Assembly (NCBI GenBank): GCA_964490105.1
Contig: CAZAZU010000001.1
Location: 580,174-644,173, forward strand
Length of the DNA: 64,000 bases
Origin: an uncultured Gammaproteobacteria bacterium
GTDB taxonomy: Bacteria > Patescibacteriota > Microgenomatia > Levybacterales > UBA12049
Direction: 5' to 3'
The position numbers and the translations under genes are program-made. This document shows, in pieces, positions 33,596-60,765 of this stretch. The notes under the pieces were generated by a model. The model searched no databases and was not told where the DNA came from. It worked only from the letters and a program-made list of their open reading frames with translations. How positions within the stretch are numbered: the first letter of the stretch is position 1; every line of letters begins with the position of its first letter.

Positions 33596-34386
33596 TACTT
33601 AACACTCCTCTTTACACCGTTTGACGGTGCTAATACTTCTACAGATTCTTTCATAAATAATAAATTTTTATGTTTTAAAACTTCATAAGTATTTAAAAGC
33701 TTTGCATTTATAATCTCCACATTTTTAATATTTCGACTAGCATTATAAACATTTGGAAGTTCTTTTGGAGCACCGGAAATAACTAACAAAACTCTTCCCT
33801 TTCCTTTTTTATCTTCTGTAACTTTCGAAATTAATTGATACATATTTTTTGTTTTTGCTTCAATCTTATTAACTCCAGAAAGCACTTTTATGTCTCCGTC
33901 CGCTGCTCTTTGTGATAATGCTGAAAGAAGTGCAGCTTTTTTCATTTTTTGTGGCATAGCCAACGAATAATCCCTAAGCTTTGGTCCATGAGCTACTCCT
34001 CCTTTAACAAAAATTGGAGCTCTCTTTCCTCCGTGTCTAGCTCCACCTGTTCCTTTTTGTCTATAAATCTTTTTAGTTGATCCTGTGACTTCTCCTCTTG
34101 TCTGAGTTACTGCAGTTCCAAGTCTTTGATTTGCGAGATAAACTCTAACAGCTTGTGCCATAAGAACATTGTTAACTTTCACACCAAACACATCTTTTGG
34201 AAGAGAGAAAGTTCCAGCTTTTGCGCCTTTTACATCAAACATAGGAGCATTCAAGCCTGATACTTTTACAGTCTTTACTGCTGATTCTACTTTTTCTGTT
34301 TTTGCCGCTTTTTCAGCTGCCACTTTTTTTACTACTGCTTTTTTAGGAGCTGCTTTTGTTGTTTTTGAAACTTTACTTGTTGCCAT
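33595..34386 (-). CDS. rplD: 50S ribosomal protein uL4 with Lys/Ala-rich N-terminal extension
   Basis: 263 aa. The uL4 core (KKIYRQKGTGGARHGGKRAPIFVKGGVAHGPK) follows a roughly 40-aa low-complexity N-terminus. Confidence 0.9.
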   Translation of the reverse strand: MATSKVSKTTKAAPKKAVVKKVAAEKAAKTEKVESAVKTVKVSGLNAPMFDVKGAKAGTFSLPKDVFGVKVNNVLMAQAVRVYLANQRLGTAVTQTRGEVTGSTKKIYRQKGTGGARHGGKRAPIFVKGGVAHGPKLRDYSLAMPQKMKKAALLSALSQRAADGDIKVLSGVNKIEAKTKNMYQLISKVTEDKKGKGRVLLVISGAPKELPNVYNASRNIKNVEIINAKLLNTYEVLKHKNLLFMKESVEVLAPSNGVKRSVK

Positions 34387-35263
34387 CTTCTTCTCCTTCT
34401 TTTACTTCTCCTGCTGGTGTCTCCGAAACCTCTTCTTTTACCTCTTCAACCTGAGTATCTTCTGTTTTAGCTTCTTCTGTATTTTCTGAAGCCTCAACTT
34501 TTTCTTCCTCTTTTGGCTCTTCAACTACTTCTTCTGCTTTTTCCTCAACTGGAGCCTCAGCTTTTTGTGCTTCTGCTAATGATGCTTCTTCAGCTGCAAC
34601 TATTTCTGGATCCTTAAAAAGAGGAACGAATTTTTTGTCTTCCCCCGTTTTTTCAATCTTAATTAATGCATTTATTACTCCCGGAACTAATCCTTTAATT
34701 ACTAAAACTCCGTCATTTGTTACATCAACTACTTTTAGCCCCCTAACTGTTACCGTGTCATTTCCCATGTTTCCAGCCATTCTTTTTCCTTTATAAACTC
34801 TTCCTGGAGTTGTACCCTGTCCGATAGAACCTGGAGCTCTATGTCTATCAGATTGTCCGTGAGTTTTAGGACCTCCGCGGAAACCATATCTCTTTACTCC
34901 TCCTTGAAATCCCTTACCCTTTGATGTTCCAGTAACGTCAACTATATCTCCTGGCTGAAATACTTCTTGGGGATTTAATGCGATTCCAACTTCTGGAAGA
35001 GAGGAGTCATCCTTAATTCTGACCTCTTTTAAAAATTTAGGGGCTTGTTCTCTTTTAGCCCCTTTTGCGTGACCCAATAATGCTTTGTTTGCGTTTTTCT
35101 TAATCCCATATCCAAGTTGCACAGCTTGGTAGTGATCGCGTTCGTTAGTCTTTACTGACATGACCCAGTTATCTTTAACATCAATAAGAGTAACCGGAAT
35201 TCTCATTCCGTTTTCTAAAAATCTTTGACTCTGTACTTTTTTTATACCTATTAGAGACTGCAT
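34373..35263 (-). CDS. rplC: 50S ribosomal protein uL3 with acidic Glu/Lys-rich C-terminal extension
   Basis: 296 aa: MQSLIGIKKVQSQRF... the uL3 core, then about 70 aa of EEKAEEVVEEPKEEEKVE... tail. Confidence 0.9.
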   Translation of the reverse strand: MQSLIGIKKVQSQRFLENGMRIPVTLIDVKDNWVMSVKTNERDHYQAVQLGYGIKKNANKALLGHAKGAKREQAPKFLKEVRIKDDSSLPEVGIALNPQEVFQPGDIVDVTGTSKGKGFQGGVKRYGFRGGPKTHGQSDRHRAPGSIGQGTTPGRVYKGKRMAGNMGNDTVTVRGLKVVDVTNDGVLVIKGLVPGVINALIKIEKTGEDKKFVPLFKDPEIVAAEEASLAEAQKAEAPVEEKAEEVVEEPKEEEKVEASENTEEAKTEDTQVEEVKEEVSETPAGEVKEGEEDGNK

Positions 35264-35288
35264 ATATATTCAAAGGTTTTTTACAAAC

Positions 35289-35312
35289 AAAAAAGCGACC
35301 ACATAGTGTCGC
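35289..35312 (-). terminator. Intrinsic-terminator-like hairpin plus U6 inside the rplC leader; candidate attenuator
   Basis: Minus strand: GCGACactatgtgGTCGC followed by TTTTTT, 25 nt upstream of the rplC ATG and downstream of the predicted promoter. Confidence 0.45.
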
Positions 35313-35394
35313 TCTATTCAGGTAAGAATAAAAACTCAAACAGTAACTATGTAGCTATCACCTCCTGTGTTTGTAAAGCCATTTTGTACCTGTA

Positions 35395-35423
35395 ATTATA
35401 TCTAAGCTCGTGCGTAAATGCAA
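35395..35423 (-). promoter_or_regulatory. Sigma70-like promoter for the rplC-led r-protein operon: TTGCAT-17 nt-TATAAT
   Basis: On the minus strand: ttgcat ttacgcacgagcttaga tataat, with an exact 17-nt spacer. It lies about 130 nt upstream of the rplC ATG. Confidence 0.5.
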
Positions 35424-35480
35424 TAGGAAATGGGGAAGGACGATATGCTTATGAATTGATTTACCAATCAACACTATAGG

Positions 35481-35509
35481 TTGACTATTTTTATAAAAAT
35501 CTGTATAAT
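35481..35509 (+). promoter_or_regulatory. Consensus sigma70-like promoter TTGACT-17 nt-TATAAT driving the 35519 gene as a leaderless mRNA
   Basis: ttgact atttttataaaaatctg tataat. The ATG at 35519 begins 9 nt after the -10, so there is no SD and an essentially leaderless transcript. Confidence 0.55.
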
Positions 35510-35518
35510 TCGCGGATC

Positions 35519-35818
35519 ATGTCGGACATTCCATCAAGAAGAGTTACCTTAACTACAGAAGAAGCAAGAGAAGCTACCTCATTACTGCGCGCTGCAGGAT
35601 TAGGTGGGGAACTTGCTAAGCTATCAGGCAAACTTCCAATCGTAAGAACTCAAATTCTACATAGGGCGGCAGCCGGATTATCGCAAACCCATACATTTGA
35701 CGGAACTCCAAGTGGATTCAGAGCTCTAATCGGGGCGCCAATTCAAGATGCTGATTTAGGATCTTGGAGACAGACTATCATAGAACAGACTCGAAGACCT
35801 GGAAAAGAATCATTTTAA
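35519..35818 (+). CDS. Hypothetical small protein of atypical (Ala/Gly/Arg-rich) composition; no recognisable domain
   Basis: 99-aa ORF with a canonical ATG and a strong upstream promoter. Its codon and amino-acid composition differ from the Lys/Ile/Asn-rich host proteome. Confidence 0.4.
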   Translation: MSDIPSRRVTLTTEEAREATSLLRAAGLGGELAKLSGKLPIVRTQILHRAAAGLSQTHTFDGTPSGFRALIGAPIQDADLGSWRQTIIEQTRRPGKESF

Positions 35819-35828
35819 GCCTCTTATT

Positions 35829-37433
35829 TTAATATCCTCCCTGCTCAAATCTAGCTTTTAATTCCGGTCTAAAACCAAATTCCTCGTTTATTGCATTTCT
35901 GTATACCTTTAAAACAGGCAACTTCTCACCTTCACATTTCTTTAAAGTATATATTCCAGTATAGTAAGTGTCTGAGGCGGGAAAAGTTATTTCCTGTTTA
36001 AAAAATCTTTCCATTCCCAATAATTCATTTGATCTAGTCACAAAATATGCCGGAAATTCTGATGACATACAATCAAATTTTTCAAGTCCATTAAAAAGCT
36101 TAGAATCAATCCTTAAGGTTAATAAATTATCTGTTTTAAGTGAATAAACATTAATTGCGTCTTCAGGATTTCCCGCATTTAATCCAAAAAATATAAAGGC
36201 TGGTTTTCCATTTGCATCTTTTTCAATAAAATTCATTGCATCATTTATTCCAACCCCTGAAGTTTGTCCCTGTAAATATTCTGCCTCAGAAAATCTAGTG
36301 AATTTTGATAGATTCGTTAGATACGACATAGGACTAAAAATTAGAAATGATGAAGCGACAAAAGGAATTGAGATCGACAAAATTACAATTATTTTTTTAT
36401 ATAATTTTCCTCTCCATAAGCTTCCCAAAAAGTAAGATGAAGAAATAATTATAAAGACTAGAAAAGGAACAATATATCTAGTGCTTTGTGACTTGGTCAG
36501 TAATATTTCAAGAATTAATATCGAAAGAAAGAAAGCAATAAATATTTTAAAATTCTTTATTTTACTCTTTATCATTAAAAAAATTCCCAAAAAACCTGTT
36601 ACAAAAATGAAAGGAGTTAAAAGAAAAAATCCTATTTCAAAAAAACCAAGGAAATTATTTATCCATGCGCTAACAGGAAAACTTAATAATTCCGAAAACG
36701 TAAAAGAATATCTACTATTTGAGGCTAAAGTATTCCAAAAAACCGGATTAATTAAAATTAAAAAATCCACAGAAATTAAAGAAGCTAAAGAAATTAAAGA
36801 AGGCTTCAATAAATCATTTTTCCTTTTCCAATATATGTAAAAAGAAATTATAATTCCAGAAATTAAAATAAATAAAAAAGAATTAGATTTTATAAATACT
36901 CCAAGACCTAAAATAATTCCTAGAATCGCTCCGTTCTTGTTTGTTGGCTTTTCAATTAAATTTAAAAGCGAATAGAACACCCAAATCCCAATACAGATAA
37001 TTCCGCTTTCAAGAAGAGCTTGTCTATTATAAAAAACAAAAATTGGGGAAATTGAAAAAATAATTGAGGCTAAGTAAGCCGAATTTTTATTAAAAATTTT
37101 CTTTGTAACTAAATATATTCCAATAAGTGAAATTCCTCCGGCAATTACCGACACAAGTCTTCCAGCAAAAAGCGGATCAAAAAAATTACTGAAAATTCCA
37201 AAAAACCAAAGCATTAACGGCTGTTTGCCATCAAACATCGAATCGTATTCGTGTCCTGCCCAATGAGTCTGAATCCATCCCCAACTAAGATAAATTGATT
37301 CGTCGTTAAAAATTGGCAAGCGTGTAAGATTTATGAGATTGAAGACAAAGTAGAAAACGAGGATTAGAAGAATAAACTTGTTAATTAATATCCACTTTTT
37401 AAGCCGATTATATAATTTAAAGCCTTGAGGCAT
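35829..37433 (-). CDS. GT-C fold glycosyltransferase (PMT/ArnT-like, GT39/GT83 type) integral membrane protein
   Basis: 534 aa with at least 11 TM. First-loop DE motif (LPIFNDESIYLSWGW) as in dolichyl-phosphate-mannose protein mannosyltransferases/ArnT. Large C-terminal extracytoplasmic domain. Confidence 0.6.
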   Translation of the reverse strand: MPQGFKLYNRLKKWILINKFILLILVFYFVFNLINLTRLPIFNDESIYLSWGWIQTHWAGHEYDSMFDGKQPLMLWFFGIFSNFFDPLFAGRLVSVIAGGISLIGIYLVTKKIFNKNSAYLASIIFSISPIFVFYNRQALLESGIICIGIWVFYSLLNLIEKPTNKNGAILGIILGLGVFIKSNSFLFILISGIIISFYIYWKRKNDLLKPSLISLASLISVDFLILINPVFWNTLASNSRYSFTFSELLSFPVSAWINNFLGFFEIGFFLLTPFIFVTGFLGIFLMIKSKIKNFKIFIAFFLSILILEILLTKSQSTRYIVPFLVFIIISSSYFLGSLWRGKLYKKIIVILSISIPFVASSFLIFSPMSYLTNLSKFTRFSEAEYLQGQTSGVGINDAMNFIEKDANGKPAFIFFGLNAGNPEDAINVYSLKTDNLLTLRIDSKLFNGLEKFDCMSSEFPAYFVTRSNELLGMERFFKQEITFPASDTYYTGIYTLKKCEGEKLPVLKVYRNAINEEFGFRPELKARFEQGGY

Positions 37434-37535
37434 AAATTAATGCTAACATCCTGTTTTTTAATTAGCAATAAAATAAATGCATGATATATCAATATATGAA
37501 CAATTTTTGCGTCAAGAAAGTGAGCTTTTTTGGTG

Positions 37536-37871
37536 TTAAAAAATAAATAAGGAAGGGAGGAAGACAGCTGCGAAAATAACAATTAAAACTATGACTACTA
37601 CCAGATACATTCTCCTTGTTCTCTTAGTAAGACTTTGCATCACTACCGCATCCTGAGCATACTGAAAAATTCTATTACATTTCATGCAGCGGTAAGCGAC
37701 AACTCTTCTTAAATCCTCAAAATTTGATTCTGTTACTGCTAATTTAAAATTCCGTGAGTCATCCGGAATATTGTTACTCTTGGCATAACGCTGGATAATA
37801 ACAGCTCCATATGTTGTATCAAGCATAACTCCATTCTCAAAATCTCCACCGCAATCGGGACAATTCTTCAT
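37536..37871 (-). CDS. Zinc-ribbon protein (CxxC...CxxC) with C-terminal TM anchor; hypothetical
   Basis: 111 aa: MKNCPDCGG...YRCMKCNRIF, then a TM (YLVVVIVLIVIFAAVFLPSLFIF). Confidence 0.45.
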   Translation of the reverse strand: MKNCPDCGGDFENGVMLDTTYGAVIIQRYAKSNNIPDDSRNFKLAVTESNFEDLRRVVAYRCMKCNRIFQYAQDAVVMQSLTKRTRRMYLVVVIVLIVIFAAVFLPSLFIF

Positions 37872-37957
37872 AGCTAAATTATTTCAAGGGGGAATAATAA
37901 AGTCAATGGGTGCACCAAATCAAACAATTATGGAATTAAAACAAAATAAATTGTAGT

Positions 37958-38485
37958 TTATGCGGAGGCTGCTGCTCTTCGCGGGAATTTAGACAAAATC
38001 GGTGAGTTTGTGTGCCTAACCATATATTCATAAAAATCAGTTCCTCGTGTGGGAATATAATTTGGTCCAGGCACAAATTCAACTTCAATACCTCTTCTTC
38101 TATTCAATTGACCTGGATTAAATAATGAAGCTAGAAATCCTATCATTTGTTCAGGTGTTTGTGCGCTGAATCTCCAACTATCTCCCTCTGGAGTAAATCC
38201 GCGAAATGTATATTTTCGTTCTTGAATACGATCAAATGAGAGTAGGGGTTCATGATGTAAATGACCACCGCGAACTACATGAACGGCACTTAACTCATTT
38301 TCATCCCCAAATTCATGACCCGAATAATGCTTAACCGTTAAATGCGCCTTACTATCTGGAATTTTTATTACAGCTGATTTCCTTCCATAGCCTTCATAAC
38401 TTCTTATCGATCTATCTGGAGAAATATTCACTAATTTACCAAGACCTAGGGAAAAATTTCTTAAAGTTCTATATTCTGCACTCAT
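37958..38485 (-). CDS. Hypothetical protein, moderately GC-enriched; His-rich motif GGHLHHEP
   Basis: 175-aa ORF with no confidently recognisable domain. Confidence 0.4.
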   Translation of the reverse strand: MSAEYRTLRNFSLGLGKLVNISPDRSIRSYEGYGRKSAVIKIPDSKAHLTVKHYSGHEFGDENELSAVHVVRGGHLHHEPLLSFDRIQERKYTFRGFTPEGDSWRFSAQTPEQMIGFLASLFNPGQLNRRRGIEVEFVPGPNYIPTRGTDFYEYMVRHTNSPILSKFPRRAAASA

Positions 38486-38517
38486 AGTGATGTTTTGAAA
38501 GAGGAAAGCTAATAAGC

Positions 38518-38826
38518 CTACATTCTAATTTCTATATTTACTCCCGCTGGAAGTTCGAGGTGACCCAGAGAATCCATAGTTTTTTCTGTAGGGCTGACAA
38601 TATCTATTAATCTTTTATGAACTTTAATTTCGAAATGATCTCTGGCGTCTTTATCGATGAAAGGGGATTTGTTTACAGCGTAAACTGATCTTTTAGTAGG
38701 TAAGGGAATTGGGCCCACAACTTTAGCACCGGTCCTGATGGCCGTATCTAAAATTTGCTGACAACTAGCGTCGATGACTCTAGCGTCGTAGCTCTTTAAG
38801 CGAACTCGAATTCTACCTTTTGGCAT
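38518..38826 (-). CDS. rpsJ: 30S ribosomal protein uS10
   Basis: 102 aa: RIRVRLKSYDARVIDASCQQILDTA...IKVHKRLIDI. Separated from rplC by about 3.2 kb of inserted genes. Confidence 0.9.
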   Translation of the reverse strand: MPKGRIRVRLKSYDARVIDASCQQILDTAIRTGAKVVGPIPLPTKRSVYAVNKSPFIDKDARDHFEIKVHKRLIDIVSPTEKTMDSLGHLELPAGVNIEIRM

Positions 38827-38853: not shown

Positions 38854-40035
38854 TTATTTAATAACTTTTGTAACTACTCCTGCTCCAACTGTTTTTCCAC
38901 CTTCTCGGACTGCGAACCTAACTCCTTCTTCAAGAGCTACTGGAGCGATAAGTTTTACTGTCATTTTTGTTGAGTCTCCAGGCATAACCATTTCTACCCC
39001 TGATGGAAGAGTAGCTTCTCCTGTTACGTCTGTTGTTCTGATATAAAATTGTGGTCTGTATCCTGTGAAGAAAGGTGTGTGACGTCCTCCCTCTTCTTTT
39101 GTAAGAATATAGATTTCAGCTTCAAATTCTGTGTGCGGAGTAATAGATCCTGGCTTTGCAAGAACCTGTCCTCTTTCAACATCGTCTTTTTCAATTCCTC
39201 GAATTAATACTCCTACATTATCTCCTGCTTGACCTTCATCTAGCATCTTATGGAACATTTCTACTCCGGTTACAACTGTATTTGCTGTAGCTTTAATTCC
39301 AACGATTTCTACTGCTTCGTTTACTTTAACTACTCCTCTTTCAATTCTTCCAGTTACAACTGTTCCGCGTCCTTTAATTGAGAAAACGTCTTCAACAGGC
39401 ATAAGGAATGGCTTAGCTGTATCTCTAACTGGAGTTGGAATATCTTTATCTACTGCTTCCATTAAAGCTAATATTTGCTTTTCTGCTTCTGCGTCTCCTT
39501 CAAGAGCTTTAAGAGCTGATCCTCTTACGATTGTAACTGTGTCTCCAGGATATTCATATTTAGTAAGTAATTCTCTTACTTCCATTTCAACTAAATCTAG
39601 GAGTTCTGCGTCTTGAACCATATCTACTTTATTAAGCCATACCACAATTGAAGGTACTCCAACCTGGCGTGCTAATAGAATGTGTTCTCGTGTTTGAGGC
39701 ATAGGACCGTCTGGAGCTGAAACTACTAAGATAGCTCCGTCCATTTGTGCTGCTCCTGTAATCATGTTCTTGATGTAATCTGCGTGTCCTGGAGCGTCGA
39801 TGTGAGCATAGTGTCTGTTAGCTGTTTCGTATTCTACGTGAGTAATATTAATCGTGACTCCGCGTGCTTTTTCTTCTGGAGCATTATCAATATCCTCATA
39901 CTTCATAGCTTTTGCTCCGCCAGTCTTAGAAAGAACTGTAGCAATAGCTGCAGTAGTAGTAGTCTTACCATGGTCAACGTGACCAATAGTTCCTATGTTT
40001 ACGTGTGGTTTTGATCTGTCAAATTTATCTGCCAT
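38854..40035 (-). CDS. tuf: Elongation factor Tu
   Basis: [26 protein letters not shown]... The track ORF begins 5 codons earlier (MVFLIM); the conserved N-terminus indicates a start at 40035. Confidence 0.95.
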
Positions 40036-40039
40036 AATT

Positions 40040-40064
40040 AAAAAAACCATCAGCCATTTGATGG
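40040..40064 (-). terminator. 5'-terminal stem-loop plus U7 tract in the tuf leader (terminator-like; possible attenuator or 5' stabiliser)
   Basis: Minus strand: CCATCAaatggcTGATGG then TTTTTTT, 4 nt before the tuf ATG. No SD. Confidence 0.45.
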
Positions 40065-40117: not shown

Positions 40118-40489
40118 TCAGTTCGCTGAGCCTTCGGCGATTTCATCTGACACCTGATCCCTTACTGGTCTATCCTGAGGTGTCCCTTTTGACATCACTT
40201 CATTTCTAAGTCTGAATCTCACGAAACTTAAAAGCACTAAATCAGTTCCCATGACTACGCCTCTGTTAATAATTTCATGGCCCTTACTCAAGCTATTAAT
40301 ATGATGTCTATGGCTTGCAATAGAGCTTGGATCTAGGGGATCTATGATAGGACTTTCGTGGAAAAATTGAGACGCTTCTTCATATCTCGCTCTTGCTGCT
40401 GAAAATTCTACAATACCTTGTCTTGGGGTTTGTTTTTCAATTCTTATCAAACTTCTTACTGCTAATCTTGCAGTCTCTAATCTTCCCAT
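40118..40489 (-). CDS. Hypothetical protein (Arg/Ser-rich), translationally coupled to the upstream MazG-like gene
   Basis: 123-aa ORF whose start overlaps the stop of the MazG-like gene by 1 nt. Confidence 0.4.
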   Translation of the reverse strand: MGRLETARLAVRSLIRIEKQTPRQGIVEFSAARARYEEASQFFHESPIIDPLDPSSIASHRHHINSLSKGHEIINRGVVMGTDLVLLSFVRFRLRNEVMSKGTPQDRPVRDQVSDEIAEGSAN

Positions 40490-40818
40490 TAACGTTTGGG
40501 TTCAGCCTTTCTTTTTTCTATTTTTTTAAGCGAATACATGATCGCATCATTTAAATTTATCTTTTTAATGCGAGCTAATCTGAGGATTGAAACTAAAATG
40601 TCGCCTAATTCCTGTCTATAGGTCTCATCCTCCTGAGCTGATAAATTAGTCGCTTTTCTTCCATGCTTCGCAAGATATGCTCGCGACATCTCTCCAACCT
40701 CTTCAACTATTTGGAGTATCAAAATTGAACCAAACTCTTTAGAATCTCTTACTCCCTTATCGATTCCATCTAAATATTTTATGTAGTAGCCAAACGGACT
40801 TGGCTTTCTTTTACTCAT
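40489..40818 (-). CDS. MazG-like nucleotide pyrophosphohydrolase domain protein
   Basis: 109 aa. EExGE-type motif (QIVEEVGEMSRAY) and ELGDILVSILRLA, typical of the small MazG/all-alpha NTP-PPase family. Confidence 0.55.
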   Translation of the reverse strand: MSKRKPSPFGYYIKYLDGIDKGVRDSKEFGSILILQIVEEVGEMSRAYLAKHGRKATNLSAQEDETYRQELGDILVSILRLARIKKINLNDAIMYSLKKIEKRKAEPKR

Positions 40819-40851
40819 GAGGCTATTATAACATTATGGAAGGTTAGAATT

Positions 40852-41484
40852 TTAATTGATTTCTTTGATACCGAACTCTACTTGATTATAGTAAAAACCC
40901 CATCCGTCTCCGCCTTCAGACATGGGGAATCCGCAGATCTCTTTAGTTTTTATACCCTTAAAAGCTTTTCCTCTTCTGTTGTTCCCATCAGTTACATACA
41001 TACCTGTATAGGCAAACTTATTAGACGTATTCGTTCTAACAAATGCAATCGTATTGCAATTTTTTGTAATCTTTAGATATCGGGCAGGATAATTACAGTC
41101 ATCTTGCGTAGCGGTTTTTTCTCTCCCGTTTTTCTTAACCGTAAAAGACTTTTTCGCACAATCTTCTGACCCGTCTTGATCTGCATTTTTATTTACATCT
41201 CTAAAGAGCTTTATTGCAATATATTTGTCAACAGTTACCCCTGCTGCTACCTGTTTTTTGACATTAGAAATCGCCTCATCTCTTGTGTATGAAACATCCT
41301 CATCAACTGTGGTGACACCTTTTACTTGATTGGACGAAAGTGTAACTTGATATATGGTTAACGTAGAAAGAACTATAACTCCAAAAACGACTAGTTTTGG
41401 GAAAGTGAATAGTTTTTCTAAAAAGGATTTCTTAGCAGCTCGTCGTGCCGGCCTTTTTCGGGATTTGGACAGTTTTTTTGGCAT
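40852..41484 (-). CDS. Secreted/membrane-anchored Cys-containing protein, paralog A
   Basis: 210 aa. Basic N-terminus plus TM anchor; extracytoplasmic domain with 4 Cys. Shares SEDC..AFV..TG.Y.TD..FGIKE blocks with the next gene. Confidence 0.45.
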   Translation of the reverse strand: MPKKLSKSRKRPARRAAKKSFLEKLFTFPKLVVFGVIVLSTLTIYQVTLSSNQVKGVTTVDEDVSYTRDEAISNVKKQVAAGVTVDKYIAIKLFRDVNKNADQDGSEDCAKKSFTVKKNGREKTATQDDCNYPARYLKITKNCNTIAFVRTNTSNKFAYTGMYVTDGNNRRGKAFKGIKTKEICGFPMSEGGDGWGFYYNQVEFGIKEIN

Positions 41485-41539
41485 CTATTCCAGTGAACAC
41501 TATAAACGTATGTTTTGTCAATTAGTTTTTTAGAGGTAT

Positions 41540-42043
41540 TTACTGTTTTTTAACTCCGAAGTCGATTACTGTGTAGTATGAGTCAACTGAAAATTTTCCT
41601 GTTACTTCCTGTGAATGTCTTCCGTTAAGTCTTACTTCTCCTTCATGAGTCTTATCAGTAAAATTATATCCTGTAAAAATAAAGCCGTCCACCTTTTTTA
41701 ATTTTATTGTTACAGTTCTTGCTTTTGTGACAAATGCAACGTCTTCTGTGCAACCCCAAATACTTCTTTCAAATTTAGTACCGTTTGGTCTTGTAAACTC
41801 ATAAGTAACATTTCTATTTAAACAATCCTCAGCACTGCCTCGTCTGCCATTCATGTTTGGATCTTTAAAGACTGAAAGTAAATGATATGTTGGCGGAGTA
41901 TCACCGCTAATTCTAGTTATATTTGAAATTTCTGACCTCTGAACAAAAGACTCATCCACATATTGAGCCGAAGCATTTTGAGGAGCTACAACTACAAAAG
42001 CTAACAACATTCCAACCAATAAAGCCCTTAATTTTAATTTCAT
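41540..42043 (-). CDS. Secreted Cys-containing protein, paralog B
   Basis: Signal peptide MKLKLRALLVGMLLAFVVVAPQNASA (start chosen at this Met). Blocks AEDC..VAFV..FTGYNFTD..DFGVKK match paralog A. Confidence 0.45.
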   Translation of the reverse strand: MKLKLRALLVGMLLAFVVVAPQNASAQYVDESFVQRSEISNITRISGDTPPTYHLLSVFKDPNMNGRRGSAEDCLNRNVTYEFTRPNGTKFERSIWGCTEDVAFVTKARTVTIKLKKVDGFIFTGYNFTDKTHEGEVRLNGRHSQEVTGKFSVDSYYTVIDFGVKKQ

Positions 42044-42131
42044 GCTTGCAAGATACCAATAATGCTTCAATTTGTCAAATATTAAGCACATTTTGATTGA
42101 CTTTTAAGTCACCTATTGTTACGATACTTCA

Positions 42132-42674
42132 GTGAATCAAGCACGAATTTTAATAGTTGAGGACGAAGAATACTTAAGGGAACTTTATCAGGAAGTTCTT
42201 TCTGATCAAGGATATTTTGTAGATACTGCAGAAAACGGAAATGAAGGGCTTGCAAAAATTCAGCAAGGCGGATGGGATCTTGTAATGCTAGATATCATAC
42301 TTCCTGGAATTGATGGAATCTCAATAATGAGACAGATAAAAGCTTCCCCGGCAAAACTTCCAAATAAAAAAATAATATTTTTAACTAATTTAGATAAAGA
42401 TAAAGAAATGCAGGAAGGGCTCTCTTTGGGAGATGGATATTTTATTAAAAGCCAAATTACCCCTGGTAATCTAGTGGATCAAATAAAAGCTTACATAAAT
42501 ATTGAACAGACTCCAAATCATAATGCCCCTCAGGTTCAGCAAAATCAAACTCCACCTGCAAGTCCACCCACTCAAGCTGCACCTATTCAATCAGCTCCAC
42601 CTCAGCAAACACCTAGTCAACCAATAGCTCAAACACCTGCGCCTGCAAACCCTAGCCAAACCAAGCCTCAGTGA
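42132..42674 (+). CDS. Single-domain response regulator (CheY-like receiver) with Pro/Gln-rich C-terminal tail
   Basis: 180 aa, GTG start. Receiver motifs ILIVEDEE...DLVMLDIILPGIDG...; about 55-aa PQ-rich low-complexity tail; no DNA-binding domain. Confidence 0.7.
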   Translation: MNQARILIVEDEEYLRELYQEVLSDQGYFVDTAENGNEGLAKIQQGGWDLVMLDIILPGIDGISIMRQIKASPAKLPNKKIIFLTNLDKDKEMQEGLSLGDGYFIKSQITPGNLVDQIKAYINIEQTPNHNAPQVQQNQTPPASPPTQAAPIQSAPPQQTPSQPIAQTPAPANPSQTKPQ

Positions 42675-44071
42675 GTTAAAAATGGAATTGTAAAATTGAA
42701 TGTGGCTCCTTTTCCTTCACCTAATGATTCAGCCCACATCTTCCCTCCGTGCATTTCTACGAGAAGTTTTGAAAGATAAAGTCCAAGTCCTGTACCCTGT
42801 GCTTCTTGTTTGTGTAGATAACTTTCTCCCATAGTCCCGAACTTTCTGAAAAGCTTTTCCATATCTTCCTTATTCATTCCTCGCCCAGTGTCAACTACAG
42901 TAACAAGTAAATTCTTATCTTCAGGCTTTATCGATACATTAATAGAGCCTCCAGACGGAGTAAATTTAAGTGAATTCCCCACAAGATTAATGATAACTTG
43001 CTCAATTCTTTCATGATCAGCATTTACCAAAGGCACTGGGTAATTGGGCTTTGCAAATGCGAGCTTCAAGCCAAGCTGCTGTGCTCGAGGGATTAACTCT
43101 TCGACCTGTTTTTCTAAAATATCAACAATTTGAACTGGTTTTAACTCAAGCGATAGTCTTCCGGACTCAATTCTAGAGACATTTAACATATCATTTACAA
43201 GATTTATCAGTCTTTCAGTTGACGAATAAGCACGTGTTAAATAACTCATTTCTTTTTCGGTGAGCTGCCCTTTTTTCTTATCCATAAATAGCCACAAATA
43301 AGATTTAATAATGGTCATTGGGGTTCGGAGTTCATGAGAAGCCAGAGAAACGAATTCGTCTTTTAACTTGTCAAGTTGCTTCAATCTTTCATTAGCTTCC
43401 TGAATCGATCGGTAAAGAAGTGAGTTATCAAGAGCAATTCCTACAACTCCTGCCATTCGATCAATTAAAGCTTTTTTCTCTAGTGTTATTGCAGATTCTT
43501 CTTCTGTGATTCCAATAACCAACGTCCCAATCACATCAAGCCTAACTATAAGCGGATAAACAATTATAGATTTTACTTCCATTTCCTCTTGCGCTTCTTT
43601 AGATTCTTCATCTGAAATGTTTGAACCAAATATATCCTGAAGACTTTTTACAATCTGAACTTTCTTTGTCAGTAAAGTTTTTACTAGAACATTATCTTTT
43701 TCAGATAAAGCAATTGAAAGTTTTAAAAATTTATTTTTCCCGATATCGTTTATTGCTTCACTTTTTGCAAACGATGAAATGGCGATTGGAATTATTAATT
43801 TTTCTTCCTGCTTAACAATACAGATACTTACAAATCTAAATTCTTCCTCAACTAAAAGATCAGACACCTGCTGTGCGATTTGATTTGGGTCTGTAACCGT
43901 TGAGAGAACTACCTCATCTATATGCCTAAGAAGAGCAAGGGTCTTATTTCTGTCATTTAAATCCTGATTCTTCTTGTACATCTCCTGCATGATGTGCTCT
44001 ATGCCAGTTACGGCAGATACTGCTACAGGGTCTGTCACAGAATTTATCGGATCTTTTTGGGGCAGGTCCAT
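42668..44071 (-). CDS. Soluble sensor histidine kinase (GAF-like sensor + HisKA + HATPase_c), no TM segments
   Basis: 467 aa. H-box SHELRTPMT, N-box LVGNSLKFT, G-boxes DTGRGM and GTGLGLYLSK. Convergent with the RR gene and overlapping it by 7 nt. Confidence 0.8.
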   Translation of the reverse strand: MDLPQKDPINSVTDPVAVSAVTGIEHIMQEMYKKNQDLNDRNKTLALLRHIDEVVLSTVTDPNQIAQQVSDLLVEEEFRFVSICIVKQEEKLIIPIAISSFAKSEAINDIGKNKFLKLSIALSEKDNVLVKTLLTKKVQIVKSLQDIFGSNISDEESKEAQEEMEVKSIIVYPLIVRLDVIGTLVIGITEEESAITLEKKALIDRMAGVVGIALDNSLLYRSIQEANERLKQLDKLKDEFVSLASHELRTPMTIIKSYLWLFMDKKKGQLTEKEMSYLTRAYSSTERLINLVNDMLNVSRIESGRLSLELKPVQIVDILEKQVEELIPRAQQLGLKLAFAKPNYPVPLVNADHERIEQVIINLVGNSLKFTPSGGSINVSIKPEDKNLLVTVVDTGRGMNKEDMEKLFRKFGTMGESYLHKQEAQGTGLGLYLSKLLVEMHGGKMWAESLGEGKGATFNFTIPFLTH

Positions 44072-44093
44072 TTGTTAATTATAAGTTGAATGC

Positions 44094-44366
44094 TTATTTG
44101 AGTAAAGCGGGGAGACTGTCTGCAGGAACAGAAAGACCTTTTATAGCATCTTTACAGACTTCTACAGACGTTTGGCCAAATAAATTCTGATATTGCTTCA
44201 CCAGATTATCGATAATTGCCTTTTCGTCCCCTCCTAAAGCCACTTCATGATTTTGCCAATCTATTTTAAGGCCTGGCACTTTTTTTGCTTGTTCCAATGC
44301 CACTGGTCCAATAATAGACTCTTGCTCTTTTATTATCCTTTGAGCCATCTGAGCAAAAATATCCAT
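44094..44366 (-). CDS. Hypothetical small protein co-operonic with the histidine kinase
   Basis: 90-aa ORF sitting 22 nt upstream of the HK start. Confidence 0.4.
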   Translation of the reverse strand: MDIFAQMAQRIIKEQESIIGPVALEQAKKVPGLKIDWQNHEVALGGDEKAIIDNLVKQYQNLFGQTSVEVCKDAIKGLSVPADSLPALLK

Positions 44367-44375
44367 AAGCTTAAA

Positions 44376-45191
44376 CTATGTCCTAAGTTTTTTTAAAACG
44401 TCTCCTAACTGAAGGAGTCCCAATGTCATCAGTGAATATGAAGCGAGATACAAGTAATCATTTAATCCGCCAGCATACCAAGTTTCCCTACTTGCTTGAA
44501 ATAAAAACGTATAATCAGCTAAGAACTGAACCATTAGAGCGATCACTATAAAAAATATTTTACTTCTCATAACTCCTCCTAGTAAATTTCTAGAAAGAAA
44601 GTAAGTTAAAAGAGCAAATGATATATAAATCGCTTGACCAAGCGGATAACCAAAATCTAATAGTGTTCTTAGGGGTGCCGACATATCTATCTTATGACCT
44701 TGAACGAATAAAAAGTATCCTGCGAGAACCATTCCTAAAGGTATTAAAACCGCGGCTATTTTATTTTCAAATCCTTTGAGTCCGATTTTCAAACCCGAAG
44801 CTTTTCCAAGCAAATACGCGCCGTAAATATAAAGCGGAATACTTCCAAAGTAACCTAAATCCCCTAATGAAGGGTATGGAACTTCGATCTTGAGAAAATA
44901 AATATAGAAAGAATACATTAGCTGACCAAATTCTTGCGCTAGAAGTCCTAGTGAAAACATAAGAATTGAACGGCCAAAAAGGCTTTTGAAAAATCCCCAT
45001 TTTCTTGAAATTAAAATTCCCCACACTCCTCCCCATATAGCCATTAATCCATATGAAGCTGCGAATATTTGATGCTGGAGAGTATCAGTTGTTGTACTTG
45101 AGGACTGAATATATATCCACCAAAGAGTGAAGAAAACAAATATGGCAATCGCTATTTTATTTTGCCATTGATTACTATTAGCTTCTGGCAT
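44376..45191 (-). CDS. Polytopic membrane protein (about 7-8 TM), hypothetical; upstream of the small-protein/HK genes
   Basis: 271 aa, hydrophobic throughout; possible membrane input partner of the soluble HK. Confidence 0.45.
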   Translation of the reverse strand: MPEANSNQWQNKIAIAIFVFFTLWWIYIQSSSTTTDTLQHQIFAASYGLMAIWGGVWGILISRKWGFFKSLFGRSILMFSLGLLAQEFGQLMYSFYIYFLKIEVPYPSLGDLGYFGSIPLYIYGAYLLGKASGLKIGLKGFENKIAAVLIPLGMVLAGYFLFVQGHKIDMSAPLRTLLDFGYPLGQAIYISFALLTYFLSRNLLGGVMRSKIFFIVIALMVQFLADYTFLFQASRETWYAGGLNDYLYLASYSLMTLGLLQLGDVLKKLRT

Positions 45192-45252
45192 ATAATCAGC
45201 TTAAACCTAAAGATAAATAAATGTCAACTTATCTAACTTCCGCTACTTAACG

Positions 45253-46164
45253 ATGATACCCATATTTCCCTCATCGAAAAAGCTAGAGCTAACCGACAGA
45301 GAAGAAATAGAAAATTTCACAAAAAGTTTCGCCCCATATTCTGACTATAATTTTGTAAGCTTGTATTCCTATAACACTCAAAACTTAACTGAATTATCAT
45401 ACCTAAATAATAATCTCGTAATTTTATTCGAGGATTATATTACCGAAGAACCGGTTTACTCATTTATAGGTATAAATAATTTAGAAGACACTGCAAGAAA
45501 ACTTTTAGATAGAGCTCACGAATTAAATATACTTGATCAATTAAAATTAATTCCTGAAGGAAATTTTGGCGAGCACATTCATGGAATTCCAGGATTTGAC
45601 GCTATAGAAGATCCCGATAATTTTGATTACATTTTATCAGTTGATAAATTAAGTAAGCTCGAAGGAGGGGAGTTCCAAGACAAAAGAAATTTATATAATA
45701 GATTTGGTATTGAAAATCCTGATGCAGAGATAAAAAAATTAGATCTAACTAATAGTCAAACTAAAGATGAGATTTTAAATCTTTTTGATACTTGGGTAGA
45801 ACGAAAAGGAAAATCAATCGAAGAAACAGAACATGAAAAAACTGCAATAAAAAGACTCCTAAAAGCTTCTAACTTTTTTAATCTAATTTCAATTGGAATT
45901 TTTAAAAATAACAGACTAATAAGTTTCGCTATTTCTGAAATTGTAAATAATAACTTCTCAGTATTTCACTTTGTTAAAGCAGACATTGAATTTAAAGGTA
46001 ATTTTGAAACCACATATAAAACATTAGCAAGTGAATTAAAAAAAAGTGGAGTTTTATTTATTAATTACGAACAACATTTAGGAATTGAGAATTTGAAAAA
46101 ATCTAAAGAACTATGGAGGCCTGTGGGATTTTTAAAAAAATATACAATTTCAAAAATTGATTAA
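45253..46164 (+). CDS. Hypothetical protein; a weak guess is a DUF2156/FemAB-like acyltransferase fold
   Basis: 303 aa, host-like composition, no motif I can state with confidence. Confidence 0.35.
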   Translation: MIPIFPSSKKLELTDREEIENFTKSFAPYSDYNFVSLYSYNTQNLTELSYLNNNLVILFEDYITEEPVYSFIGINNLEDTARKLLDRAHELNILDQLKLIPEGNFGEHIHGIPGFDAIEDPDNFDYILSVDKLSKLEGGEFQDKRNLYNRFGIENPDAEIKKLDLTNSQTKDEILNLFDTWVERKGKSIEETEHEKTAIKRLLKASNFFNLISIGIFKNNRLISFAISEIVNNNFSVFHFVKADIEFKGNFETTYKTLASELKKSGVLFINYEQHLGIENLKKSKELWRPVGFLKKYTISKID

Positions 46165-47072
46165 CTTTTGTAGATCAGAAAGAGGCCGGCGATCATTAAA
46201 AGCATCAAGATTCCATTTCGCAGTTTATTTTCCCCTGCTGCATCCCTAAGATATTTTGGGAAAAATGGAAAAAATAAAACCGCAAATAAAAGTACATAAA
46301 TCGGCTGAATTCCTTCAATAACTTTTACAATTGACACTGGTCCCTTACTTATTGCTAAGTTACCAACAAATTCTGCAGAAATTCCCAATAGCTCAACAAA
46401 TGAAAAAACCAATATCCATTTTTTAAAAGTTTTCTTGAATTCTTTTCCGAATTCTCTTCCTTTTTTTGTAGATAATACTAAAAATAATGCTCCCAGTCCC
46501 ATTCCCATTGAAAAAAGCATATATCCTGTCCAAAAATCTACTTCTGTATAAACATATTTTCCTATCACAGAGATCACTGCGAAAATAAAGGCACCAATTC
46601 CGACCAGTATAAATGCCGGGGAGAATTTAAATTTCTTAATATCTGTCACAGAAATGGCAAGAGAGGAAAAAAGAATAATTCCAAAACCTAAATACTGATT
46701 TAGAGTTAAAACCTCTTTCAGGAAAAAATACGCTAAGAATGGAATTAGAGCTGGAGCAAGACTAAATAATGAAATAACTACTGAAGGTTTTTCTACCTCA
46801 AGTCCTCTGAAGTAGAAGTAATAATACATAACCGTAAGAAATCCTGCTAATAATCCTAATCCTGCGACTAAAGGAGAGGGGACTGAAATATCTACAAAAA
46901 ATAAAGCGGTAAGAGGAAGCAATCCAAAAATTCCAGAAATTATTGCTCCAAAATGTGCGGAGCGATAAACATTTCTAAGTAAATTATCATCAATAATATT
47001 TATTAAAGCAAAAAGGGCAGGAGTAAGAAGAGCTAGTAAAAACCATTGCTCCGTAATCATAATTAGGTCCAA
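46161..47072 (-). CDS. EamA-like (DMT superfamily) transporter
   Basis: 303 aa, about 10 TM, with the two-repeat architecture of EamA. Overlaps the pdaD start. Confidence 0.6.
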   Translation of the reverse strand: MDLIMITEQWFLLALLTPALFALINIIDDNLLRNVYRSAHFGAIISGIFGLLPLTALFFVDISVPSPLVAGLGLLAGFLTVMYYYFYFRGLEVEKPSVVISLFSLAPALIPFLAYFFLKEVLTLNQYLGFGIILFSSLAISVTDIKKFKFSPAFILVGIGAFIFAVISVIGKYVYTEVDFWTGYMLFSMGMGLGALFLVLSTKKGREFGKEFKKTFKKWILVFSFVELLGISAEFVGNLAISKGPVSIVKVIEGIQPIYVLLFAVLFFPFFPKYLRDAAGENKLRNGILMLLMIAGLFLIYKS

Positions 47073-47554
47073 TCTTCGGACTTATATGCAGCAATTACTA
47101 CAACTGACGCCGGTAAATCCTTGACCTGAGCTGTTTTAATTTTAATTCCTAATTTATCTTCATCAAATTCCAAATCTCTATTTTTACATAAATCCATTAT
47201 GGATCTTTTTACTTCTTCTCGTAAATCTGCCTCTACCGAACTTTCAACCTCTCCTGTTTCTTCATGCTCTACGAAAACTCCCCGTCCATCTTCTAACTGA
47301 TACCAACCAAGTGCTGCCCCAATAAATCTCCCTGAATCTCTACTTCTCATTTCGGCTTTTACACAATAAAGCTTATTCCCCCATTCATTATCATTTACGG
47401 GCATTTTCTCATGAATAACTGTCGTCATTGGAGGAATAACAGATGAAAGAGTAATAAGATTAAAATTCATTACTCCTGCATCCATAAGTGCACCATCAAA
47501 TGCAGATAAAGGTGTTTTCCCGAAGCCTACGCCAGTTGTAATATAAATTTTCAT
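47063..47554 (-). CDS. pdaD: Pyruvoyl-dependent arginine decarboxylase (archaeal PdaD type)
   Basis: 163 aa: GVGFGKTPLSAFDGALMDAGVMNFNLITLSSVIPP matches PdaD NAFDxALLxAGIGNVNLIxxSSIxPP, with the Ser-Ser self-cleavage site. Confidence 0.7.
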   Translation of the reverse strand: MKIYITTGVGFGKTPLSAFDGALMDAGVMNFNLITLSSVIPPMTTVIHEKMPVNDNEWGNKLYCVKAEMRSRDSGRFIGAALGWYQLEDGRGVFVEHEETGEVESSVEADLREEVKRSIMDLCKNRDLEFDEDKLGIKIKTAQVKDLPASVVVIAAYKSEDWT

Positions 47555-49774: not shown

Positions 49775-49791
49775 AAATTAAATAAAACTTT

Positions 49792-49830
49792 AAAAAAGCT
49801 CCCACAAATGGAAGCTAAATGAGTATACCA
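49792..49830 (-). promoter_or_regulatory. Extended -10 promoter (TGgTATACT) plus 5'-terminal stem-loop and U6 leader for fusA
   Basis: Minus strand: tgtggTATACTcatttaGCTTCCAtttgTGGGAGC TTTTTT aaagttttatttaat ATG. The hairpin has one mismatch. No SD. Confidence 0.45.
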
Positions 49831-49847: not shown

Positions 49848-50399
49848 CTATAGAATTGTTCCGAATTTTTTGTTTTTCTTTGTATTCTTTATAAATGAAT
49901 TTAAGCGTCTTTCGTAATCTTCCATTCTTTTTTGCTTTTTAGCATCCTCTATGTAATAAATCCTAAGTCTTTTATAGAGATCGTCAAAGGCTTGATAGTT
50001 CTTCCAGACTTCCGGATCTGTCTTTAATGCTTTTTCTGTTTCAGGAGACAATATGACTGGTTTTTCAGAAAGATCCACTCCTACTAGTGCCTCTATTCCA
50101 TATGGAGTCATAAGCTTTGATTTAATCAAACGTCTTGCTCGTTCTTTATTTAGCTCTGACCAATTTGACTTAGCTCTTCTTGGTGTAAATCGCTGAATAG
50201 TTGAATCCTGATCCCGTTTTTTAACCACCCCGTCTATCCATCCAAAACACAACGCTTCTTCAACTGCCTCATTATAAGGAAGTGAAAGCTTTCCTGATGC
50301 CTTTTTATAGAAGACAAACCATACTTCTTTTTCCTTATTGTGGTTTTTCTCAAGCCACTCTCGCCACTCTTTTCTATCCTTTGCATAAAAACTATTCAT
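49848..50399 (-). CDS. YdeI/OmpD-associated (OmdA) family protein
   Basis: 183 aa: EAVEEALCFGWIDGVVKKRD, a family signature. Confidence 0.55.
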   Translation of the reverse strand: MNSFYAKDRKEWREWLEKNHNKEKEVWFVFYKKASGKLSLPYNEAVEEALCFGWIDGVVKKRDQDSTIQRFTPRRAKSNWSELNKERARRLIKSKLMTPYGIEALVGVDLSEKPVILSPETEKALKTDPEVWKNYQAFDDLYKRLRIYYIEDAKKQKRMEDYERRLNSFIKNTKKNKKFGTIL

Positions 50400-50467
50400 A
50401 AACTAATTATATTACTTTTCCTGGAATCAAAACTGCACGATACATCGATATATCGATATATGATGCA

Positions 50468-51379: not shown

Positions 51380-51417
51380 AGATGGGGAATTATATTCTAA
51401 AGGGGATTAAACTTCAA

Positions 51418-51846
51418 CTATAGGTTATGTTGTAGGTCGTTTTTTTGGGGTAGAGAAGTTACAGTAACCTTTAAGCCGGGTTTTTCTCCTTCTACTGCCT
51501 GTTGAGTTAGCGCAAACCCTTCCCTAGCAACAATTGCTAAATGTGCTGATTCCACTCCAGTTCTTAGTTCTGATTCTTGTCCAGTTAAAGATACACGGGG
51601 TGATACGCGGATAAATCTACCTAATTCTGTTCCAGATAGAATTTGGGCTATTGGTCCTAAATGAGAATCGACAGCATCTGATAATAGATGTGAATATAAC
51701 TCTGTTCTATGGCCAATTCCCTCTTTTATTCTTTGCTCTATTAAAGACAAAGCCATTAGCTCTCTTTCGATTAATTCAACATTATCAATTGGAAGATTAA
51801 CTTCTACAACAGGTCTGCCTGGTTTTGGCTCAACATCTCTAGTCAT
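51418..51846 (-). CDS. Hypothetical protein, GC-enriched; immediately upstream of the 303-aa gene
   Basis: 142-aa ORF. Its stop lies 5 nt from the rpsG stop side. Confidence 0.35.
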   Translation of the reverse strand: MTRDVEPKPGRPVVEVNLPIDNVELIERELMALSLIEQRIKEGIGHRTELYSHLLSDAVDSHLGPIAQILSGTELGRFIRVSPRVSLTGQESELRTGVESAHLAIVAREGFALTQQAVEGEKPGLKVTVTSLPQKNDLQHNL

Positions 51847-60666: not shown

Positions 60667-60673
60667 TTAATCT

Positions 60674-60762
60674 GCATTAAGAGAGTCCGATCAATATCGG
60701 ACCGGCAACCGAGCCCTTCGACCAGCTCAGGGACGCGGTGCCATTCCAAAAAGGAAATGCGG
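60674..60762 (+). promoter_or_regulatory. SAM-riboswitch-like leader (SAM-I core features, apparently P4-less SAM-I/IV-type) upstream of metK
   Basis: GCATT...AATGC (P1). AAGAGAG. Hairpin TCCGATcaatATCGGA (P2). GGCAACC. A GC-rich P3. GGTGCCATTCC. Then TTCC-AAAAA-GGAA, which could sequester the AAGGA SD of the metK ATG at 60766. Confidence 0.5.
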
Positions 60763-60765
60763 CTT

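Follow-up and report, generated by a model that had tools for sequence, protein, structure and literature searches.

The rpsJ/rplC junction of a Levybacteria-like genome as a likely operon boundary with variable gene cargo and an rplC leader of its own

We analyzed a 64,000-nucleotide stretch of contig CAZAZU010000001.1 (the window), in which the genes for ribosomal proteins uS10 (rpsJ) and uL3 (rplC) are separated by a spacer of 3,254 bp (35264-38517). The spacer carries four open reading frames (ORFs), here called p175, p111, GT534 and p99. The ribosomal super-cluster of the window lies on the minus strand. We assign the genome to Candidatus Levybacteria (Microgenomates), since its rpsJ is matched best by metagenome-assembled genomes of that group. 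The layout of four non-ribosomal genes between rpsJ and rplC, as given by a first-pass annotation of this DNA, is confirmed by the ORF list and by hidden Markov model scans against Pfam and NCBIfam. The best explanation of the whole locus, which we consider likely, is that the rpsJ/rplC junction is a relocated operon boundary that serves as a slot for variable cargo, that the island of four genes is a vertically inherited accessory cluster, and that rplC is preceded by a leader with its own promoter and a putative attenuator. In Levybacteria, and in at least part of the related Microgenomates, tuf and rpsJ would form one transcription unit, and rplC would open the large ribosomal-protein operon with a promoter of its own. 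The spacer that separates these units would be an operon boundary and would therefore tolerate inserted genes.

The junction was compared across the lineage in 80 relatives (Levybacteria and other Microgenomates) collected via rpsJ, and the gap was measured in the 76 loci that carry both rpsJ and rplC. The tuf gene of the window is 77-97% identical to that of all 80. None of the 76 rpsJ-rplC gaps is shorter than 98 bp, and their median is 240 bp; 25 are longer than 600 bp and 14 longer than 1 kb. The gap between tuf and rpsJ is 110 nt or less in 64 of 75 relatives and longer than 300 nt in nine. We agree with the first-pass annotation that the interruption is unusual compared with most bacteria, but its picture of a near-universal junction split by an island does not fit a lineage in which no measured gap is shorter than 98 bp and a third of the loci (25/76) hold unrelated cargo in gaps above 600 bp. 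The cargo of the long gaps is mutually unrelated between genomes. The ORFs of this cargo that were scanned against Pfam include a glyoxalase, a CAP-domain protein, an Asp/Glu racemase, a GH26+CBM96 hydrolase, a peptide deformylase and DUF5680, and further NUDIX, histidine phosphatase, Fic, an FtsJ methyltransferase, an AAA_14/DUF4143 ATPase, an EamA transporter and several orphans. Other junctions are also split in the window itself. Three genes (49848-51846), for an OmdA-domain protein and two orphans, separate rpsG from fusA. Eleven genes (40118-47554) separate fusA from tuf, among them those for a two-component system (HisKA kinase and response regulator), MazG, a pyruvoyl arginine decarboxylase, EamA and an LPG_synthase_C protein. 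Because cargo recurs in the relatives and other junctions of the window are split, the rpsJ/rplC interruption appears as one case of a lineage-wide habit. The gene set between fusA and tuf is partly common to relatives L082, L086 and L096.

In archaea, and in cyanobacteria and plastids, the S10 gene follows the EF-1alpha or tuf gene in a str-type unit. The Levybacteria order would resemble this arrangement in that rpsJ is transcribed with tuf and not with rplC. It differs in that rplC is still nearby on the same strand, beyond the spacer or cargo slot and a dedicated leader. Gene insertions at the junctions of the translation super-cluster have been documented in Gammaproteobacteria and Bacilli, at tuf/rpsJ (PMC8046335). 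As at the present locus, these are small unrelated gene sets at operon junctions, which are vertical within clades and sometimes lost again. However, the boundary is tuf/rpsJ there and rpsJ/rplC here, where about one third of the related genomes are affected, each with different cargo.

The island genes would lie between transcription units and not inside one, because rplC has a conserved promoter and leader of its own. Homology with the closest relative, L002, resumes at ~35429, ~166 nt upstream of rplC. The leader (35264-35430, minus strand) contains, in this order, a promoter, a near-leaderless upstream ORF (uORF) of 11 codons, a small hairpin and an intrinsic terminator (Table 1). The uORF includes the conserved boxes GGAGGTGAT and GCTACATAG, and 31 nt separate it from the hairpin in the window. 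The promoter is kept in five loci of the island clade, with or without p99. None of the 22 leaders in alignment A3 departs from TATAAT, and in most leaders a TATAAT-like box precedes the uORF ATG by 8-19 nt. A hairpin with a T-run occurs upstream of rplC in 77 of 77 sequences, at a distance of 6-46 nt from the ATG in 69. The stems differ by clade (GCGAC/GTCGC, GGTAGCC/GGCTATC, GCCCCG/CGGGGC, GTGGCC/GGCCAC) and the hairpin is kept. An ATG uORF of 8-13 codons that ends 18-38 nt before the hairpin is present in 48 of 67 non-redundant leaders, compared with 5.8 +/- 2.4 in shuffled sequences (maximum 14 in 1,000), and a uORF of exactly 11 codons in 22 of the 67, compared with 1.0 expected. The uORF has no run of regulatory codons; its peptide is weakly conserved (x-E-V-x-x-A/T-T), and the conservation is at the nucleotide level. 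A covariance model built from A3 finds one match per locus, always before rplC, in 35 Levybacteria sources including island-bearing relatives, and no match elsewhere in 1.46 Mb. Rfam gives nothing at gathering score in the window besides a tRNA and SAM-I/IV, and nothing relevant at E up to 10 in 35200-38600. That rplC has its own promoter and a terminator-containing leader is well supported as a reading of these sequences. Our literature searches found no description of a CPR (candidate phyla radiation) or Levybacteria ribosomal-protein leader, or of an S10/rplC operon under leader-peptide control.

Two further features were seen around these leaders. In relatives with compact gaps, a box ATGCCCAAA, which would read M-P-K like the start of rpsJ, lies ~95-110 nt before the rplC hairpin (L012, L015, L018, L026, L027, L030, L033, L041, L042, L044, L047 and L048); in some of these loci it seems to fall within the promoter spacer rather than to be translated. 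In the window, tuf is preceded by a promoter-like TTGACG-17-TATATT (40100-40072) followed by a hairpin with T-run (40065-40046) that ends ~10 nt before the ATG at 40035. A similar hairpin with T-run is seen by eye ~22 nt before fusA (roughly 49775-49815).

The rplC leader can adopt two competing structures. The loop and 3' arm of the terminator in the window (35307-35298) can pair with the end of the uORF (35355-35346), and CTATGTGG is the proposed pairing partner of GCTACATAG in this antiterminator. The segment 20-34 nt ahead of the hairpin, where the uORF ends, is the strongest pairing partner of the terminator loop and 3' half in 32 of 71 leaders. Covariation of the pairing is visible by eye, for example GGCTGCATAA with TGTGCAGTC and ACTACATAG with CTATGTAGT. 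In A3 (22 sequences), pairing reaches 98.3% for the terminator and 86.6% for the antiterminator. The latter value compares with 20-71% when the partner is slid, and the antiterminator shows nine double-change cells compared with 0 in 500 shuffles. The minimum free energy structure of the window leader is the antiterminator when no ribosome is present or when the ribosome is early in the uORF; it changes to the terminator when the ribosome footprint is set at the uORF stop codon. The rplC leader is thus plausibly a ribosome-mediated, translation-sensing attenuator. In such a mechanism, available ribosomes would translate the uORF to its stop codon and cover the antiterminator strand, so that the terminator forms and transcription ends. 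When ribosomes are scarce or inhibited, or stall early, the end of the uORF would pair with the terminator loop and 3' arm, and transcription would read through into rplC and the roughly 30-gene ribosomal-protein operon.

The leader has counterparts among known regulators. The E. coli S10 leader (uL4-mediated and NusA-dependent) is likewise a promoter-proximal leader of ~130-170 nt with an intrinsic terminator ~30 nt before the first cistron. Here, however, the first cistron is rplC and not rpsJ, which starts just after tuf; there is a short conserved uORF, and Rfam has no match. Fu et al. 2013 (PMC3616713) describe ribosomal-protein leaders of the E. coli type as mostly confined to Gammaproteobacteria. 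Leader-peptide attenuators (trpL/hisL; whiB7, erm/cat, ABC-F) share with the rplC leader a short uORF, alternative antiterminator and terminator hairpins, and a uORF end that overlaps the antiterminator. They differ from it in that the present uORF has no regulatory codon run and is near-leaderless, that the targets are ribosomal-protein genes, and that, in the logic proposed here, translation completed to the stop codon would switch the operon off.

It is also possible, although we give it clearly less than an even chance, that the rplC element does not sense translation at all. It could be (a) an attenuator that responds to uL4 or another ribosomal protein, (b) a leaky inter-operon terminator or 5' stabiliser, in which case the hairpin would set the tuf:ribosomal-protein ratio, or (c) a micropeptide gene, in which promoter, 11-codon ORF and terminator stand alone. 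The terminator lies ~30 nt ahead of rplC, a distance also seen in the E. coli S10 leader, and this fits such an element. Several results weigh against translation sensing. Of 64 leaders modelled as equilibrium ensembles, only 15 go from a disfavoured to a favoured terminator when the ribosome mask is imposed; in 41 the terminator forms whether the mask is present or not. RNAalifold yields the terminator alone, which we count as a caveat. In a second class of stems (GGTAGCC-type), the uORF has only 2-9 codons and the alternative pairing is weak or possibly of opposite logic. Since hairpins with T-runs are found before tuf and, by reading of the sequence, before fusA, these elements could be general leaky or partial terminators, attenuators or 5' stabilisers. 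The shuffle statistics of the uORF overstate its significance, because the loci are related sequences. The promoters, transcription starts and termination sites discussed here are all predicted from sequence. On the other side, chance falls far short of explaining how well the uORF is conserved in length, position and frame. Its stop codon lies within the best pairing partner of the terminator 3' half, and covariation is seen in this pairing. A micropeptide gene is argued against because the peptide is poorly conserved while the nucleotide boxes are conserved, and a pure inter-operon terminator because a -10 box lies upstream.

From the reading of the leader as a translation-sensing attenuator, a wider proposal can be made. 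The leader may represent a new class of ribosomal-protein regulator across Levybacteria and Microgenomates, a near-leaderless leader-peptide attenuator that gauges translational capacity and that, as it makes rplC an autonomous operon start, would have freed the rpsJ/rplC spacer for hypervariable, envelope-modifying cargo. We advance this proposal tentatively and think it more apt to fail than to hold. No described precedent for translation-sensing feedback on ribosome synthesis was found in our literature searches.

The contents of the slot were compared in detail within the genus-level clade of the window, whose members are 97-98% identical in tuf, 99-100% in rpsJ and, in nucleotides, 92-97% in the leader. 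Gene content between rpsJ and rplC differs in every genome of the clade. The window has p175, p111, GT534 and, on the opposite strand, p99. L082-85 have p174, a glycosyltransferase (GT) and p102, the last on the opposite strand. L086 has p177, p145, p183 and a GT. L095 has p175, proteins of 196 aa and 184 aa, and a GT, after which the contig ends. L094 has p174, a split p183, a protein of 218 aa, a NUDIX protein and, on the opposite strand, p101, which is 34% identical to p99. In L096 and L002, p175 stands alone. The more distant L091 (rpsJ 93%) has p167, a GT87-family enzyme of the GT-C fold and a membrane protein before its contig ends. As all island variants (L082-85, L086, L094, L095, L096 and L091) share p175, this gene is the constant member of the island, directly after rpsJ. 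The p175 family is also the recurrent partner of the GT-C gene, a role filled by two GT-C families (PMT_2 and GT87), and p99 recurs beside the rplC promoter. The slot of the clade would consist of p175, a variable middle (p111 here; other small membrane or soluble proteins, or nothing, elsewhere), usually a GT-C enzyme of the PMT_2 family, and often p99 divergent from rplC. In L091 (956-2737), a p175 homologue of 30% identity is followed by the GT87-family enzyme in place of PMT_2, so that the pairing persists and the GT family differs. In L081 (7035-8498), a more distant relative, a homologue of GT534 with 29% identity lies just upstream of tuf; GT-C genes therefore recur round the translation cluster at different junctions.

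The data indicate a fast-evolving island that was inherited rather than recently acquired. Against L082, dN/dS is 0.08 for p99, 0.13 for the GT and 0.21 for p175, which is purifying selection, with dS near saturation. The most parsimonious history is that the island was already in the common ancestor of the clade, has undergone continual turnover and was deleted in L002. Its absence from L002 is most simply a loss, because the island is present in the more distant clade members L082, L086, L094 and L095. The first-pass annotation had instead proposed a recent horizontal acquisition, in which a foreign module of a GT and a Zn-ribbon protein was inserted into an otherwise intact S10 operon, and we regard this as very improbable. 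Two points speak for it: the overall GC of the four genes varies from 0.29 to 0.44, and the closest relatives L002 and L096 lack GT, p111 and p99. The description of p99 as GC-rich is correct (0.443 compared with a gene mean of 0.358). However, the high GC of p99 and the low GC of GT534 (0.292) are confined to the first and second codon positions and therefore reflect amino-acid composition; GC at third codon positions (GC3) is within the host range in all four genes (z = -0.5 to +1.5). With native GC3 and with the island carried by relatives, the compositional mix does not indicate acquisition as had been suggested. Pfam and NCBIfam scans of the window show no integrase or transposase domain; the only tRNA is at 16942, and the search for flanking repeats gave only short AT-rich chance repeats. 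Moreover, p111 does not co-occur with the GT elsewhere, and an rplC with its own promoter and leader leaves no operon to be interrupted. The first-pass annotation had also weighed, against its own view, an ancestral order conserved in relatives with annotated functions: the arrangement is indeed conserved there, but the functions are still unannotated. A mobile element was rejected, as there is no integrase, attachment tRNA, flanking repeat or deviant codon composition. Defence-island and prophage readings were rejected on the results of PADLOC, which gives 0 matches for all four island proteins, and of PHROGs, which gives a single weak match (E = 0.008) among the four. An imperfect direct repeat of 19 nt (35486-35504 and 38023-38041, 84% identical, AT-rich) is probably due to chance; compared with the indel in L002, its second copy adjoins the upstream edge (~38022) and its first lies ~57 nt inside the other edge.

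An assembly chimera, in which the contig wrongly joins rpsJ and rplC via unrelated sequence, has a negligible probability, and no point in its favor was found. The Logan assembly of SRR8863434 reproduces the order rpsJ-175-111-GT-99, although it may share the reads of the window. The same type of island occurs in five relatives from other samples, and homologous islands are present in the NCBI metagenome-assembled genomes (MAGs) GCA_018061075, GCA_020047435 and GCA_964565795 and in Logan contigs from further runs. With the same type of arrangement in another assembly and in relatives from other samples, a chimeric assembly is unlikely, and the homologous islands in independent samples refute it. 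A different view of the turnover is that the island is a strain-variable surface-glycan cassette like the O-antigen or capsule loci, where the very highly conserved flanks, tuf-rpsJ on one side and rplC with its leader on the other, would anchor homologous recombination that swaps divergent alleles and gene sets between related Levybacteria. The contrast between flanks and island is in line with it: the flanks are 97-100% identical (amino acids) compared with 34-86% for the island genes (p175 59-86%, GT 57-76%, p99 34-81%). So are the gene content peculiar to each clade genome and the GT87 that replaces PMT_2 in one relative. On the other hand, the divergence may simply reflect weaker constraint, given the dN/dS values of 0.08-0.21 with dS near saturation, and the cargo of other Levybacteria is mostly unrelated to glycans. 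We think such a cassette rather unlikely; it is compatible with the relocated operon boundary and does not exclude it.

Table 1. Features at the rpsJ/rplC junction of the window (promoters, uORF and terminator are predictions)
Feature	Coordinates	Strand	Description	Evidence or position
tuf (EF-Tu)	38854-40050	-	would open the tuf-rpsJ unit	ORF list
rpsJ (uS10)	38518-38826	-	PF00338; NF001861, 143 bits	27 nt downstream of tuf
p175	37958-38485	-	175-aa ORF, soluble, family-less	starts 32 nt past the rpsJ stop
p111 promoter-like site	37878-37906	-	TTGACT-17-AATAAT, TG extension	ATG 6 nt on
p111	37536-37871	-	111-aa ORF, N-terminal Zn-ribbon (CPDC...CMKC) and C-terminal transmembrane anchor	
GT534	35829-37433	-	534-aa glycosyltransferase of GT-C fold	Pfam PMT_2, 63.9 bits vs cut-off 26.1
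p99	35519-35818	+	99-aa ORF, small soluble helical protein	convergent with GT534, divergent from rplC
p99 promoter	35481-35509	+	TTGACT-17-TATAAT; ATG 9 nt downstream	present in L082 and L094 too
rplC-operon promoter	35395-35423	-	-35 TTGCAT (35423-35418), 17-nt spacer, -10 TATAAT (35400-35395)	
uORF	35347-35382	-	11 codons, MALQTQEVIAT and stop	ATG 12 nt past the -10 box
Intrinsic terminator/attenuator hairpin and T-run	35292-35315	-	AGAGCGAC-ACTATGTG-GTCGCTTT	ends 27 nt before the rplC ATG
rplC (uL3)	34373-35263	-	TIGR03625, 215 bits	heads the large ribosomal-protein operon rplC-rplD-rplW-rplB...

Among the island proteins, one can be assigned to an enzyme family. The rough gene identities of the first-pass annotation are right, including its call of a PMT-like GT-C enzyme for GT534. 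The match of GT534 to PMT_2 (PF13231) has an E-value of 2.7e-17 and covers residues 72-222, and the protein also scores PF02366 PMT (31.0 bits vs cut-off 22.7). Hydropathy peaks give at least 9 transmembrane (TM) helices, followed by a C-terminal soluble domain of ~168 aa. The acidic motif FNDES (in LPIFNDESIY) is located directly after TM1, in the first extracytoplasmic loop, and is kept in L082, L086 and L095; it may have a catalytic role. Orthologues in L082-L086 and L095 are 57-76% identical. GT534 is below the NCBIfam cut-offs for Agl23 (36.2 vs 126.25), LA_3751 (21.2 vs 200) and MT1671 (19.7 vs 900). It thus resembles PMT/ArnT-like GT-C enzymes in its score above the PF13231 gathering cut-off, its polytopic topology and the acidic motif in the first extracytoplasmic loop. 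It differs from them in that it reaches no curated NCBIfam subfamily cut-off, matches no solved structure and is paired with an orphan soluble protein. By family membership, GT534 would most likely take a sugar from a polyprenyl-phosphate donor and attach it to a protein or lipid on the outer side of the membrane, and the function of the island is probably envelope glycosylation with no role in the ribosome. This assignment has to be set beside results that do not favor it. A phmmer search of GT534 against PDB sequences finds no match to any solved structure. The soluble p175 is not obviously a partner for an outward-facing GT-C enzyme. AlphaFold2 models of p175 (alignment of 8 sequences; predicted local distance difference test, pLDDT, 53.8) and of p99 (4 sequences; all-helical, pLDDT 51.3) are of low confidence, too poor for use, and give no credible fold match.

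The constant member, p175, has no Pfam, NCBIfam, PADLOC or PHROGs family match and no TM helix by hydropathy. Its 8 close homologues share 59-100% identity with it. A profile run against 1.84 billion representatives added a single genuine distant relative, P0018 (~30% identity, hhalign probability 97.7); the other three non-self matches, in multiple stretches of repeat or low-complexity proteins, were discounted. Scanned against metagenomes, the p175 profile finds two loci only, both from lineages already seen. Where the genomic context was examined, the p175 homologue is directly after rpsJ in 9 of 9 cases. The earlier description of p175 as His-rich is overstated, with 8 His in 175 residues; six of these are invariant in the family, including H75, H77 and H78 of an HLHH cluster. 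No promoter or terminator is predicted in the 32 nt between rpsJ and p175, and p175 is probably co-transcribed with tuf-rpsJ as the tail of that transcript. The true start of tuf itself is probably the second ATG, at 40035, and not the listed ORF start at 40050.

In p111, the two CxxC pairs are CPDC (residues 4-7) and CMKC (62-65), and one TM helix is present at the C-terminus. Its score against DUF6487 (PF20097) is 23.4 bits, just under the cut-off of 24. The gene is lacking in L082-L086, L094 and L096. Its only other homologues, on the short contigs L087 and L088, are followed by small genes of the p183 type; no GT is visible there, on contigs too short to exclude a GT further along. p111 is sporadic, variable cargo and is not conserved with the GT. 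A glycosylation module of GT and Zn-ribbon protein, as the first-pass annotation had imagined, is rejected because of the co-occurrence pattern: L082-L086 retain the GT without p111, and the GT-C gene has its recurrent partner in the p175 family.

p99 has no Pfam or NCBIfam family. Its homologues are 81-87% identical, apart from the one in L094 at 34%, and are placed and oriented alike. The p99 promoter is the strongest sigma-70 match of the region (11/12); it ends 9 nt before the ATG and bears out the earlier view of p99 as leaderless. Judged by their promoter positions, p111 and p99 would both be leaderless transcripts from promoters of their own. A role of p99 as DNA-binding regulator of the divergent rplC promoter was considered but finds no support; the sequence that separates these promoters varies and shows no evident covarying operator. 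In the window as a whole, a TATAAT-like box precedes the ATG by 6-9 nt, with no Shine-Dalgarno sequence, in ~10 of the 75 listed genes (for example 40818, 44071, 50399, 51379, 62819, 35519 and 37871), and for this reason leaderless mRNAs seem common here. Genes internal to the ribosomal-protein operons mostly have a Shine-Dalgarno sequence of the GGAGG type.

Two observations do not concern the junction. A SAM-I/IV riboswitch (60669-60787, plus strand, 48.7 bits) lies upstream of metK (60757-61863). Because it overlaps the called ORF start, the real start of metK is probably further downstream. Many of the closest relatives (L002, L007, L015 and others) were deposited as MAGs of an 'uncultured Gammaproteobacteria bacterium'; their rpsJ, tuf and synteny are Levybacteria-like, and the record names look wrong.

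With three str/S10 junctions split in one window, conserved ribosomal gene order is unsafe as a quality or synteny anchor in Microgenomates. The relocated boundary would mean that a whole CPR lineage has shifted its operon boundary from tuf/rpsJ to rpsJ/rplC. The rplC leader is the more interesting result, compared with an island that is a clade-specific accessory cluster with one assignable enzyme. If the leader senses translation, ribosome synthesis in these bacteria would be fed back by ribosome availability rather than by free ribosomal protein.

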